Notes: a model not told the origin generated them from the letters alone. Counted from the stretch's first letter, positions 14,962 through 44,275 are shown. The stretch is 64,000 bases of DNA from Alphaproteobacteria bacterium (GCA_963422645.2 CAXXVO010000015.1:163363-227362); one strand, 5' to 3'. Made by a program: numbers and translations.

Positions 14962-16089
14962 ATGAAAAGCATTGAGGCCCATTTCAAGGTCGCGACGCCA
15001 TGCTTCGTCGGATCAAGCAATAACAACGCCGAAGTTCGGGTTTCCTCGATCAAGGGTGCGCTGCGATTCTGGTGGCGCGCGCTCGCATGGGCGCAGTGTG
15101 CCGGCGAGGGTGGAGCCAGAGACACGGTCCGGCGCATAAGAGAACGAGAGCACGCATTGTTCGGCTCCAGCGACGCCGGGCAGAGCAAAGTCGCGATGCG
15201 GCTCGACATGAAGGCTATGCCCGAGATCGTGGAAAAGGGCAAGGTGCTGCCCGTCGGCCCCGGCGCACGCTACCTCGGCTACGGGGTAGCCTTCGGAAGC
15301 AAGAAAACAGGCACGAAACCGGGGCAGTTGATCCGCCCCTGTCTCGCGGCCCCGTTCCCGTTCTCCTTGCGAATTGCCGCACGGGACGCGCGGGCATTGT
15401 CTGACATCGCACCTGCACTGCGGCTTCTCGGTTTGGTCGGCGGTGTGGGGGCTAGGGCCCGCAAGGGCTACGGCAGCCTCGTTCTGACTTCTCTCGAAGG
15501 CGACGGTATCACCGGATGGCGGCCGCCCCGAGATATCGAGACATACTGCGGCCATCTGAGTTCGCTGTTGAAGGGCGTGGAGGCCATTGGCCGCGAGCCG
15601 GAGATCAGCGTGTTCTCGGCATGCGCGCGCGTCGATCTGATGTCCGAGAATGCCCGTACGCCCGCGGAAGTTCTCGACGAATACGGCAAGGCGATGGTGC
15701 GCTACCGAAGCTGGGGCCGAAACGGCAGGATTCTCGACGGCGAGCCTTCCAAATGTCGTTTCCGCGAAGACCATGCCTGGATGAAAAGCGAACAAGCAGC
15801 CGACGATTTTCACCCGCGCCGCGCGGTGTTCGGGCTGCCGCACAACTACGGGAAAAACATAGACGTTAAGCCGGATCAGCACGACCGGCGCGCGAGCCCC
15901 CTCTTCTTTCATGTCCACGAAATCGGCGCTCGGTATGCGGGTATCGCGTTGTTGTTGCGATCACGCTTTCTGCCCGAAGGCGAGAAGATCAGGGCGCGCG
16001 GAAAGGCTGTTCCTGCCAAACCCGACTGGGGCGTGTTGACGACGTTTCTGGATGAAAACCGGACACGCGGACTCTGGCCTGATGGCTGA
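14962..16089 (+). CDS. cmr1: Type III-B RAMP Cmr1
   Basis: SIKGALRFWWRA, GGVGARARKGYGS, RAVFGLP, RRASPL. Confidence 0.92.
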   Translation: MKSIEAHFKVATPCFVGSSNNNAEVRVSSIKGALRFWWRALAWAQCAGEGGARDTVRRIREREHALFGSSDAGQSKVAMRLDMKAMPEIVEKGKVLPVGPGARYLGYGVAFGSKKTGTKPGQLIRPCLAAPFPFSLRIAARDARALSDIAPALRLLGLVGGVGARARKGYGSLVLTSLEGDGITGWRPPRDIETYCGHLSSLLKGVEAIGREPEISVFSACARVDLMSENARTPAEVLDEYGKAMVRYRSWGRNGRILDGEPSKCRFREDHAWMKSEQAADDFHPRRAVFGLPHNYGKNIDVKPDQHDRRASPLFFHVHEIGARYAGIALLLRSRFLPEGEKIRARGKAVPAKPDWGVLTTFLDENRTRGLWPDG

Positions 16090-18004
16090 CCGAATCCTGC
16101 ACGTTTCGATCGGACCGGTGCAAGGCTTCGTCGCCCAGGCGCGGCGCACTCGGGACTTGTGGGCTGGGTCATTCCTGCTGTCGTGGTTGGCGGGACAGCT
16201 CATGGCAGCGGCGCTGCGCCGGGGCGGTCGGATTCTCTTACCCGTGGTCGGCACGGAGCGAGAACCGAGGGATTCGATGCTGGCCGCCGTTCTCGGGCAG
16301 CCGCTGTCCGGCGAACTGCCGCGTATCGGCAGCCTGCCTAACCGCTTCAAGGCGGCGGTCTCTGACGTCTTCGATCCCGAGGCGGTGGCGGACGAGGCAC
16401 GGCGGAAGTGGCGCGATCTGGCCGAATGCGTATGGCGGCGCTTCGTCGCTGGCGAAGTTGGCCTCGGCCACGATACCCGCGCCATCTGGGACCGCCAGAT
16501 CGATGGGTTTTGGGACATCCAGTGGGTGGCGGGCGCCGACCCGGGCGACGGGAGCGACGCCGCCTGGCTTGACCGGCGCAAGAACTGGCGTACTCACTGG
16601 TCGCCCGAAGAAGACGGGGACCATTGCACGACGATGGGCGACCGACAGGAACTGTCGGGTTTCGTTCGCAGCCGCGAGCGGTCGGACCAGGACGCTTTCT
16701 GGCGCGCGTTGCGAACGCGGACGGGGCGGCTCGATCTTCGCGACGGCGAGCGTCTCTGCGCGATCGCGCTGGTCAAGCGCTTGTTCCCCCGGCTCGAACC
16801 GACGGAACTCGAGCAGACAATCGGCTGGAGGATCAGCACGACGAACTGGCCCTCGACAGCCTATATGTCGGCGGTGCCTTGGCTCGCCCATGTCGCTGCC
16901 CATACTGAGCACCGTGCTAAATTGCAGGATTACGTCGAAACCGTCCGTAAAGCCGTTGGTCCGTCAACTTTCAGCAAGCTGAGCGGCGAACGCGCCGCGC
17001 GGCTGCCCAGGCTCGCCCCGCTCGGCGCCGCCGCGGACTTGGACGGCAACCTGTTTCTCGAAGCTGCGCTGGCGAACCCTCGCGCGACACCATTGAGCGA
17101 CGACGTACGCCTGCCCGGCGAAGCCGATGGGAAAGACGACCCGGACGCGGCGCCTCGCGTGCGGTTGTCAAGCGCTTTGCACGAACTCAGCGAGACGGTC
17201 GGCGCCGCGCGGCCGTTCTATGCGCTGTTGCTGATGGACGGTGACCGACTCGGCGAGTTGCTGCAAGAAAATGGCGAGGAACGGGTTTCCGAGGCGTTAG
17301 CAGAATTCGTTCGCCGCGTCCCCGACATCGTTCACGATAACGACGGTATGACCGTCTATGCTGGAGGCGACGATGTCTTGGCGATGCTGCCCGTCGATCG
17401 AGCGATCGATTGCGCGACTGCATTGCGCCGTGTCTACGGCAAGGTGTTTGCGAGTCGGGCTTTCGTGGAAGGCGATAAGGAGGGCGTATCCGCTACCGCG
17501 TCGTGCGCCATTGTCTTCGCGCATTATCGCAATCCGCTACGCGAAGTATTGGCGCTGGCTCACAGGGAACTCGACGAGACGGCCAAGGAAAGAAATGGGC
17601 GCGACTCCTTGACGCTCTCCGTCATGCTGCCCAGCGGCGTGAACCACTATTGGGTCGCACGTTTCGGAGGGGCGCCGGAGGCGCTTGAGGCGCTCTGGCG
17701 GAAGCGTCTTCCGGCGAGCTTCTTGTACAATTTGCGTCAACGCTACGATGTCCTGATCGGCGATCTCGACCCGGGCGACCGACGCGCCGTAGTTCTGGCC
17801 GAATACGTCAAGGGCGCACCACCGAATACCGAGGACGGACATGCACGCGCCGAAGCCGCTGTGGACGGGCTGCTTGCCGCCTGCACCACGCTTCGCGGAG
17901 ACGACGCGCCCGACGAGGTAGGGACGTTCCGTCTCGATGGCGCATTCATCGCCCGCTTCCTAGCAGAATCCAGCGACTTCGAGCGCGCGGCGACGCCATC
18001 ATGA
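16082..18004 (+). CDS. cmr2: Type III-B Cas10/Cmr2, no HD domain, intact cyclase motif
   Basis: IGPVQGFVAQARRTRDLWAGSFLLS at N-terminus; MDGDRLG; YAGGDDV. Confidence 0.95.
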   Translation: MADRILHVSIGPVQGFVAQARRTRDLWAGSFLLSWLAGQLMAAALRRGGRILLPVVGTEREPRDSMLAAVLGQPLSGELPRIGSLPNRFKAAVSDVFDPEAVADEARRKWRDLAECVWRRFVAGEVGLGHDTRAIWDRQIDGFWDIQWVAGADPGDGSDAAWLDRRKNWRTHWSPEEDGDHCTTMGDRQELSGFVRSRERSDQDAFWRALRTRTGRLDLRDGERLCAIALVKRLFPRLEPTELEQTIGWRISTTNWPSTAYMSAVPWLAHVAAHTEHRAKLQDYVETVRKAVGPSTFSKLSGERAARLPRLAPLGAAADLDGNLFLEAALANPRATPLSDDVRLPGEADGKDDPDAAPRVRLSSALHELSETVGAARPFYALLLMDGDRLGELLQENGEERVSEALAEFVRRVPDIVHDNDGMTVYAGGDDVLAMLPVDRAIDCATALRRVYGKVFASRAFVEGDKEGVSATASCAIVFAHYRNPLREVLALAHRELDETAKERNGRDSLTLSVMLPSGVNHYWVARFGGAPEALEALWRKRLPASFLYNLRQRYDVLIGDLDPGDRRAVVLAEYVKGAPPNTEDGHARAEAAVDGLLAACTTLRGDDAPDEVGTFRLDGAFIARFLAESSDFERAATPS

Positions 18005-43032: not shown

Positions 43033-44275
43033 CCCCGCCGTCGTCGCCCTTGCCTTCCAGCGCCAGTTGGCGGCTACGGCGGACGATCTCGATCAGCTTG
43101 TCCTGCGGCTTGAGGGTGAGTGACCGGAACTCAAAGCCTGCCGCCTCCGCCTGTGCGTAGGTTTGCCGATAGAGCGCACGTGCCGCAGCGCGGTCGAGTT
43201 CCACGGCGTCCGTGGTGCCGTCTGCATGCACCAGTTCCAGCGGCGCGGCACCCTCGCAGACCAAATCGCAGCGCGAGCGCAGGGCGTAGCCGCGCGCGTC
43301 CTGTTCCGCAAGCGCCAAAAGACCGAGCGACGCGATAAGGGCACGACCGGCGGTATCCCGCTCGCCGCCGCCGAAGCGCAATCGCCGCAGCCCCGCCAGC
43401 GTGATCGTTGCGCGGTGTTCCGCATGGTCGCAGGTGACCCCGAGAGGCTCTACCGTGGGAGCGATGTTGCTGTGATTGATCTCGGAGGGCCGGACCTTCT
43501 TGGCACCCCTCCCTGCCTCATTCTGTTGAGTGCTCCACTCAGATACTGAAGCGCCCTTGAAGACCTCAACATTTCGGAGGATGCCCAACGGGTCGATACG
43601 GCTTCCTGTGCGCCGTCCCGCCGTACGAGTCTCCACTTCACCGGTGCGTCGGCCGGCCGGGCCGTCTTCGACCGGCGTGTCGATCCCCATGATTTCGGAG
43701 ACGACCGCACGCGGGAACTTCGCGCCGAGGCCACCGCCCTGGCCCTGGCTGTGCCAAGCGCCGAACAACAGGGCCGCGGGAGACAGCTCCAGCAACGCCG
43801 CCGCATCGGCAGGCTTCGCCGCCGCAAGGCGCTGGCCTTCGTCGCTTTGCATGAAGGGGGTTCCATTCAGGAGGCTATCCCGCAGGATGGCGTCGTAGAC
43901 CCGGTGCGGCGCATCCAGCGAAGTGATGCGCTCCAACGGTTCCAGCCCTTCGCCGCGAAAATCCGCCGTGACGTAAGGCAGTGGCAGCCGCTCGCCCCTG
44001 GCTTCTTCATCGGCCGCCGCCAGCAGCGCCTCTTCCAGCCGGTTGGCTTGGCTCTGCACACTGTCGATCAAGACGCACCAGATTTCCCTGCCGTCCATCC
44101 GGCGCCGCTCAAAGACATGGCGCGGCGGGGTGCCCCGGGGGCTGCCGCGCTCGGGCGGATAGGTCGGCGGGAAAATTTTGTCGCCCTGCCCGCCAATTGG
44201 CTGAAGCCACCGAACGCGGCGGAACGCCGCATCCCTCTCAACGGCTTCCATCAAGGCACGCAACTCGATTGTCAT
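43010..44275 (-). CDS. csb1: Type I-G Csb1 (Cas7)
   Basis: KIFPPTY, IDSVQSQANRLE, PHRVYDA, LLFGAWHS, LRSRCDL. Confidence 0.93.
   Translation of the reverse strand: MTIELRALMEAVERDAAFRRVRWLQPIGGQGDKIFPPTYPPERGSPRGTPPRHVFERRRMDGREIWCVLIDSVQSQANRLEEALLAAADEEARGERLPLPYVTADFRGEGLEPLERITSLDAPHRVYDAILRDSLLNGTPFMQSDEGQRLAAAKPADAAALLELSPAALLFGAWHSQGQGGGLGAKFPRAVVSEIMGIDTPVEDGPAGRRTGEVETRTAGRRTGSRIDPLGILRNVEVFKGASVSEWSTQQNEAGRGAKKVRPSEINHSNIAPTVEPLGVTCDHAEHRATITLAGLRRLRFGGGERDTAGRALIASLGLLALAEQDARGYALRSRCDLVCEGAAPLELVHADGTTDAVELDRAAARALYRQTYAQAEAAGFEFRSLTLKPQDKLIEIVRRSRQLALEGKGDDGGDDNGSGS

Follow-up and report, generated by a model that had tools for sequence, protein, structure and literature searches.

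The 64,000-nt stretch of DNA analysed here (the window) forms the right end of contig C16 in an alphaproteobacterial genome of 5.9 Mb (23 contigs, 99.58% complete, 8.48% contamination). Two CRISPR systems face each other in it, a type III-B Cmr cassette on the plus strand and a type I-G system on the minus strand, which converge on a CRISPR array located between them. The Cmr cassette carries neither cas6 nor adaptation genes nor an array of its own, and the subject of this analysis is the probable supply of its CRISPR RNAs (crRNAs) by Csb2, the Cas5-Cas6 fusion protein of the I-G system. Coordinates are positions in the window unless a contig, genome or locus prefix (C, G or L) is given.

Gene content of the Cmr and I-G modules

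The Cmr cassette opens with cmr1 (14962-16089; TIGR01894, 36 bits against a cut-off of 28.65, and PF03787 RAMPs), which is 75% identical over its full length to the gene of L005, the closest relative found. It is followed by cas10/cmr2 (16052-18004), encoding a 650-aa protein matched by TIGR02577 (159 bits) with Cmr2_N (PF12469) at residues 16-125 and palm2 (PF22335) at 389-521; by cmr3 (18001-19107), 77% identical to that of L005, whose TIGR01888 match covers the full profile (E 2.4e-20) but stays below the cut-off (72.9 versus 100.4 bits); by cmr4, encoding the backbone RNase (19095-19967; TIGR02580, 168 bits); by cmr5 (19946-20386; TIGR01881, 38 bits, cut-off 27.9); and by cmr6 (20379-21383; TIGR01898, 140 bits). 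All six open reading frames (ORFs) are intact and full length relative to L005, at 75-85% identity, their order is collinear with that of L005-L013, and cmr1 and cmr3-6 are all matched by equivalog models, cmr3 at a score below cut-off. Both features of type III-B membership are thus found in one operon, namely a Cas10 with a palm/cyclase domain and the set of Cmr1 and Cmr3-6.

The window Cas10 begins at Cmr2_N, an HD-deleted construct of Pyrococcus furiosus Cmr2 (3ung_C) aligns with it from residue 12, and neither this alignment nor the domain search found an HD nuclease domain in it; the cyclase motifs LLMDGD and YAGGDD are retained. The HD domain occurs in many type III-B members, not in all, and its loss is compatible with III-B membership. 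The Cmr module itself is therefore without a DNase. The AIDLP motif of Cmr4 has its Asp aligned with that of VVDQP in P. furiosus Cmr4 (4w8w_A), and we take it to be the catalytic residue (D26). No second Cas10 was found in the genome, in which TIGR02577 matches the window Cas10 only. Directly upstream of cmr1 lie two tyrosine-recombinase genes (11115-12239, full length; 14081-14740, truncated) and an IS4 transposase gene (12888-14051), an arrangement compatible with arrival of the Cmr cassette on a mobile element.

The seventh gene of the cassette encodes a CARF-HEPN protein of the Csm6 family and is broken by an insertion sequence (IS). Its N-terminal part (21400 to ~21735, plus strand; TIGR02710 profile positions 1-84) ends in ...DFTGGTK and is followed by a 1.77-kb IS110-family element (~21730-23503, plus strand; transposase 22058-23338, NF033542, 270 bits), beyond which the C-terminal part (23507-24445, plus strand; TIGR02710 positions 85-369, PF09670, PF22205; PADLOC label CARF_HEPN/Csx1) supplies the rest of CARF, the 6H domain and a HEPN domain with RRNESIAGHG. 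The interruption falls between ...GGTK and CMSAAL..., where intact orthologues read without a break (DFTGGTKCMSAAL). The CARF, 6H and HEPN (R-x4-6-H) domains of a Csm6/Csx1-type effector are all present, but not on one polypeptide, and the gene is a pseudogene in this strain. The CARF gene that the initial annotation placed in the Cmr element is therefore there, but only as two fragments. The genome contains 46 further full-length copies of this IS110 at 99.89-100% identity, and since these copies are identical or nearly so, the insertion is recent. When the IS junctions were compared with the assembled contigs of four public runs (including X1, X2 and X3), the X1 and X3 contigs ended at both IS110 borders in the CARF gene, no contig bridged the element, and the four runs gave no sign of an intact allele.

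No second CARF effector gene was found, TIGR02710 matching only the two fragments genome-wide, and Csx1_HEPN had no match in the genome; SAVED likewise gave no match, but its positive control was also blank, which makes that blank uninformative. With IS110 interrupting the sole CARF effector gene and no second copy present, the signalling output is disabled in this strain. Deprived of both HD and Csm6, the Cmr module would be left, at most, with RNA cleavage by Cmr4 and the synthesis of cyclic oligoadenylate (cOA) that is not read.

On the minus strand, 35594-44290 is a complete type I-G system in the order csb1-csb2-cas3g-short cas8g-cas4/cas1-cas2. It comprises csb1, encoding Cas7g (43010-44290; TIGR02570; PF09617, 161 bits); csb2, encoding the Cas5-Cas6 fusion that is the predicted pre-crRNA endonuclease (41584-43032; TIGR02165, 304 bits, cut-off 45; PADLOC Cas56g); cas3g, encoding a helicase with a C-terminal HD nuclease (38618-41731; TIGR02621, 770 bits; cas3_HD at residues 836-966); a gene for a short Cas8g of 329 aa (37632-38621; PADLOC Cas8g, E 6.7e-78 over the full profile; NF049934, 155 bits); a cas4g/cas1g fusion (35896-37572; NF049935, 765 bits); and cas2 (35594-35920; TIGR01573). 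Four features that mark a I-G system are found: Csb2 with Csb1, Cas3g with a C-terminal HD domain, Cas8g, and a Cas4-Cas1 fusion plus Cas2 beside the array. In NCBIfam, the 329-aa protein carries the name type I-G "Cas3-extension family". Csx17, the long Cas8g (TIGR04113), gave a single match in the genome, on contig C6, at 12.1 bits (E 0.115; cut-off 150 bits).

The identical six-gene order, with short cas8g in the same position, occurs in L038 and L040, which are from an alphaproteobacterial and an Acidimicrobiales metagenome-assembled genome, respectively, and the order csb1-csb2-cas3-hypothetical-cas1-cas2 is reported from mycobacteria (PMC10333696). IS66-family transposase fragments (44734-45777 and 46708-48837, minus strand, within the region 44354-48837) lie immediately upstream of csb1 in the window and could affect the promoter of the I-G operon. 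Loss of csx17 to these fragments was considered and rejected, as L038 and L040 share the csx17-less order. The L038 csb1 is instead preceded by a restriction-modification fusion gene (5727-8255, minus strand; PADLOC MTase_II with REase_II; genome G002). The fusion joins a type II methyltransferase to a restriction enzyme, and the I-G/III-B locus of G002 lies within a defence island.

Repeat geometry and predicted crRNA processing

The CRISPR array (34878-35348, minus strand) consists of seven identical 36-nt repeats, AAUUCCGGGGCUUUGUCGCCCCGGCCUCAUUGAAGC in transcript sense, and six spacers of 36-38 nt. An eighth repeat, identical to the other seven by exact matching, stands alone on the trailer side (30645-30680, minus strand) beside a 40-nt spacer-like remnant (30605-30644). 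Between cas2 and the array, a leader of 245 nt runs from the cas2 stop to the first repeat (35349-35593, minus strand) and shares conserved blocks with the L038 leader. The array transcript is assigned to the minus strand because of this conservation and because the I-G genes, array and cmr1-6 of L006/L038 all read in one direction. No self-targeting spacers were found in the genome, the searches returning only self-matches and short chance matches of 16-17 nt. A single array shared by the two modules, as first annotated, is right as to location, but the array itself is split by a 4156-bp nested IS that sets the eighth repeat apart.

The predicted fold of the repeat is a 7-bp stem capped by a 6-nt loop (-15.5 kcal/mol), after which come CCUC and AUUGAAGC. 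In leader-to-trailer sense its 3' end reads ATTGAAGC, and this 8-nt end is kept in the repeats of L006, L008, L015 and L040 despite differing hairpins. The repeat end that the initial annotation had likened to a type III 8-nt 5' tag is confirmed, as are its readings of cmr1-6 without cas6 and of a Cas10 that lacks HD and keeps GGDD. Csb2 of Thioalkalivibrio sulfidiphilus cuts a 36-nt repeat 4 nt downstream of a 7-bp stem and leaves an 8-nt 5' handle, with H503 near its C-terminus as the catalytic residue (PMC9638904, Shangguan et al. 2022). The predicted geometry of the window repeat, with a 7-bp hairpin, 4 nt and then 8 nt, matches this published cut exactly. In an alignment of four Csb2 proteins, His451 of the window protein is invariant and stands just ahead of the C-terminal glycine-rich loop, where it would be the counterpart of T. 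sulfidiphilus H503; a PDB sequence search with the window Csb2 returned no matches.

Five Cas6 models were searched against the whole genome. TIGR01877, PF01881, Cas6f TIGR02563 and Cas6e TIGR01907 had no match in its 5.9 Mb, and PF10040 had a single match of 13 bits (E 0.62), below cut-off, while the Csb2 profile matched only csb2 itself. Because no Cas6 was found by these five models, Csb2 is the only recognisable pre-crRNA nuclease of the genome, in agreement with the initial annotation. A k-mer scan revealed a second array on contig C7, which has a 36-nt repeat and 30-nt spacers, is II-C-like and is split by an insert of ~2.5 kb (C7:274585-275250 and 277806-277955); beside it lies a Cas1 fragment (a 138-aa frame at C7:278534-278788). 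No further Cas1 or array was found in the genome, and this II-C-like locus appears to be another CRISPR locus in decay.

Taken together, these findings are read as a composite locus in which Cmr would use crRNAs made by Csb2 from the I-G array. This crRNA-sharing reading is probably correct, and we put its probability at roughly three in four. Transcription of the array would start from the leader on the cas2 side, and Csb2 would cut each repeat 4 nt past the 7-bp hairpin and 8 nt before the spacer, yielding a mature crRNA composed of a AUUGAAGC 5' tag, 36-38 nt and the hairpin. Such crRNAs would join Csb1, Cas8g and Cas3g for a PAM (protospacer adjacent motif)-dependent attack on DNA, and the same crRNAs, trimmed at the 3' end, would assemble with Cmr1-6 for PAM-independent RNA sensing. 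On binding of a complementary transcript, Cmr4 would cut the RNA and the Cas10 palm would make cOA and thereby activate the Csm6-type RNase; in this strain, however, the gene for that RNase is broken and no reader is recognised. From sequence, we infer both Csb2 cleavage at the predicted site and loading of Cmr with the resulting crRNAs.

Relatives of the cassette and competing explanations

Relatives of the cassette were collected by a Cmr6-seeded scan with one genome per species, which gave 33 loci (L numbers, in genomes with G numbers). From these and the window, with L015, L023 and L037 dropped because their Cmr4 or Cmr6 match was too short, MAFFT and FastTree (LG+gamma, midpoint root) gave a Cmr4+Cmr6 tree with 31 rows. 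The window and L005-L013 form a clade of 10 with a support of 0.996. In all nine clade relatives, cmr1-6 precede a CARF-HEPN gene of the same family that is intact, and eight of the nine have Csb2 (TIGR02165) over cut-off in their genomes. Conversely, Cas6 was found by neither TIGR01877 (0/9) nor PF01881 (0/9) in the genomes of the clade relatives, and no Cas6 lies near cmr in any of the clade's 10 genomes. Across all 33 genomes, Csb2 exceeds its cut-off in 14, TIGR01877 in 4 and PF10040 in 13, with the Cas6 matches mostly adjoining more distant cmr loci. The clade-wide pairing of Cas6-less III-B with I-G, which extends into other phyla, suggests that the whole Cmr clade may depend on type I-G.

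The position of the cassette relative to I-G varies. In G002, the I-G genes, cas2, a 26-repeat array, cmr1-6 and CARF follow one another on one strand, and G004 has cas4/1, an array, cmr and CARF in succession, then convergent I-G effector genes. In G005-G008, by comparison, the nearest Csb2 is 76 kb to ~1 Mb from the cassette, which is flanked by housekeeping genes (aldolase, FolD, PPK2, methyltransferase); each of these genomes has a single Cas1, whose open frame of 572-719 aa is of fusion size. Within flanks of ~4.5 kb upstream and ~8.5 kb downstream, no array was found near the cassette in L005, L007 and L009-L013 (seven of nine), and the arrays near the other two, L006 and L008, have I-G-type repeats. 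Of 400 other genomes sampled evenly from the window's class, 15 have Csb2 and five have a related Cas10, and only G308 has both, adjacent to each other. Two of three family-level relatives (G081 and G384) carry Csb2 without such a Cas10, suggesting a resident I-G system to which Cmr was added later; the G081 I-G locus is arranged in another order. In several genomes, further ORFs match the Csb2 profile over its Cas6-like C-terminal half only (~250-492), at G308:C1:3555075-3555692, G018:C18:2959-3696, G025:C211:4550-5254, G013:C18:14433-15104, G013:C40:204-848, G014:C3:37970-38596 and G014:C21:2362-2994. Some of them stand directly after a full csb2 and beside cmr genes, and the ORFs may encode stand-alone Cas6 proteins of Csb2 origin.

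Several observations weigh against crRNA sharing. Csb2 stays bound to the 3' hairpin of the crRNA in the I-G Cascade (PMC9638904), and because it keeps hold of this end, the hand-over of crRNA to Cmr is an assumption of the model. The catalytic His of the window Csb2 is assigned from where it stands and how well it is conserved rather than from an alignment with the T. sulfidiphilus protein. Among the clade relatives, G009 has only a Csb2 fragment, and G001 carries a Cas6 (PF10040, 1/9) at ~2 Mb from cmr. In the class sample, Csb2 is missing from four of the five genomes that carry a related Cas10 (34-45% identity). Finally, the counts among relatives are not independent trials, because they come from kin that a Cmr6-seeded scan had retrieved.

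An alternative scenario is that the two modules are mere neighbours in a defence island, with Cmr an orphan and already inert remnant that does not use the I-G array. Damage at the locus is in line with such a scenario, as the Csm6-family gene and the array are both split and the genome is IS-ridden, with the 46 further IS110 copies and ~100 matches (not an exact count) at ~98.6% identity to the PF21804-type IS that splits the array; the presence of Csb2 without related Cas10 in G081 and G384 likewise marks Cmr as an add-on. However, the six cmr ORFs have remained intact and full length against L005, and the IS110 in the CARF gene, being 100% identical to other copies, arrived recently. Moreover, clade-wide pairing with Csb2 in the absence of Cas6 would be hard to explain for independent systems, and I-G is again found next to cmr in G002, G004 and G308. 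The scenario is therefore unlikely.

It is quite improbable that the crRNAs of Cmr are matured not by Csb2 but by an unrecognised divergent Cas6 or a host RNase. Divergent Cas6 proteins can escape searches with hidden Markov models, and the stand-alone ORFs of the Csb2 C-terminal half near cmr (G308, G013, G014, G018 and G025) indicate that this domain can act as a separate protein; in the window's genome, however, the Csb2 profile finds nothing besides csb2 and the five Cas6 models are blank, and among relatives the intact cassettes are flanked by housekeeping genes.

The crRNA-sharing reading can be taken further. The Cmr genes may represent a horizontally mobile cassette of seven genes that rides on a resident I-G system and depends obligately on its Csb2-made, AUUGAAGC-tagged crRNAs, in the manner of a type III satellite, a proposal for which the odds seem evenly balanced. 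By the same proposal, and with the same even chance, the cassette (HD-less cas10, cmr1, cmr3-6 and the csm6-type CARF-HEPN gene) would have shed Cas6, the adaptation genes and the array. Hosts of the cassette belong to Alphaproteobacteria, Arenicellales, Acidimicrobiales and Verrucomicrobia; in some it is joined to the I-G locus, in others it lies up to ~1 Mb away among housekeeping genes. If true, dependence of the clade on I-G would explain the continued function of horizontally transferred Cas6-less III-B cassettes and their tendency to occur where I-G is resident.

Known systems and expansion of insertion sequences

The name I-G, as Elmore and co-workers used it in 2015, reportedly refers to the Cst system and not to the Csb1/Csb2 system now so called. 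In the Cst/Cmr locus of P. furiosus, type I and Cmr modules share crRNAs that are processed by a stand-alone Cas6 (Elmore et al. 2015, PMC4666368), whereas Csb2 is the predicted processor in the window. In Marinomonas mediterranea, the III-B system uses type I-F crRNAs (Silas et al. 2017, PMC5576922; cited in PMC12814883). The window resembles it in that a III-B effector would work on crRNAs made by a type I system and provide a PAM-independent back-up; the M. mediterranea processor, however, is Cas6f and its III-B system reportedly acquires spacers itself, whereas the window has Csb2 and a cassette without adaptation genes. The T. sulfidiphilus I-G system shares with the window a 36-nt repeat, a 7-bp hairpin, Csb2, a Cas4-Cas1 fusion and the presence of a III-B locus in the same genome, but it has the long Cas8g (Csx17), whereas the window has the short cas8g (329 aa) and its genome no Csx17 over cut-off. 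In the available text of that study (PMC9638904), crRNA sharing with III-B is not among the tests.

The closest precedent is that of Haliangium ochraceum, whose cmr1-6 were run in E. coli together with a mini-array and csb2, the latter serving to process the crRNA (Steens et al., bioRxiv 10.1101/2023.06.23.546230). That system, like the one proposed here, combines a Cmr module without its own Cas6, crRNA from a type I-G Csb2 fusion and a cOA signalling output; it differs in its effector, which is SAVED-CHAT/PCaspase in H. ochraceum and a Csm6-family CARF-HEPN gene, now broken, in the window. Two features of a Csb2-fed III-B system are found here, namely cmr1-6 without cas6 and csb2 in the same genome; crRNA-guided activity that depends on csb2 would be the third. 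The hybrid that the initial annotation had proposed thus fares differently in its two halves: supply of crRNA by I-G is well, if indirectly, supported by Csb2 as the sole recognisable pre-crRNA nuclease, the repeat geometry, the clade-wide pairing and the H. ochraceum precedent, but III-B signalling does not hold for this strain, in which the effector gene is split.

If the reading is correct, the locus adds a natural side-by-side case of type I/III crRNA sharing via the Cas5-Cas6 fusion Csb2. The gain is incremental, because borrowing of type I crRNAs by III-B and the feeding of Cmr by Csb2 are already in print. A full-text literature search, which covered neither figures nor supplements, found no paper that links a Cmr clade lacking Cas6 to Csb2, and this link may be a new comparative point.

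The locus is being eroded by IS expansion, and the signalling effector has already been disabled. Downstream of the CARF gene, an IS nest occupies 24700-30604: an IS5-like element (~24.70-25.136 and 29.702-30.07 kb) holds an IS21 (25137-29701), within which family matches place a second IS110 (~25934-27581), and a 5'-truncated IS630, identified by six-frame reading of the unique pieces, follows the IS5-like element at ~30.07-30.60 kb. The nesting was confirmed by contigs from the public runs, in which X3 joins 25136 to 29702 and X1, X2 and X3 join 25933 to 27582. A 22-nt tandem repeat of 4.8 copies (25148-25253), just inside the left end of IS21 (25137), may represent the multiple terminal binding sites of that element. 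Family matches and six-frame reading found no cas6 remnant in the nest. Loss of a cas6 gene or a III-B array that once stood between the CARF gene and the array, which the initial annotation had named as the finding that would overturn its proposal and had located in the IS cluster at 24.4-30.6 kb, is very improbable: some DNA was deleted at the truncated IS630 and the array is cut short on its trailer side, but the 6.2 kb from the CARF stop to the lone repeat consist of IS5, IS21, IS110 and IS630 elements, with ~250 bp of unique DNA just past that stop, and the clade relatives with intact loci have no cas6 beside cmr (TIGR01877 and PF01881 blank in nine genomes, the lone PF10040 match being ~2 Mb off) and, within ~4.5 kb upstream and ~8.5 kb downstream of the cassette, either no array or one with I-G-type repeats.

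The array is split by the nested IS of 4156 bp (30681-34836), which consists of an element with a PF21804-type transposase (33279-34835) and an IS1380 (31763-33244) inside it; it has 18-bp terminal inverted repeats and is inserted exactly at a repeat/spacer junction. The locus thereby illustrates how IS expansion dismantles a two-tier defence, the effector RNase first and the array next. Copies of IS110 in the genome stand partly in head-to-tail tandem runs, with examples of the expansion at C16:27174-32490 and C11:48110-56956. Farther upstream of csb1, very long overlapping ORFs of 1601 aa (minus strand) and 1763 aa (plus strand) occupy 49025-55348.

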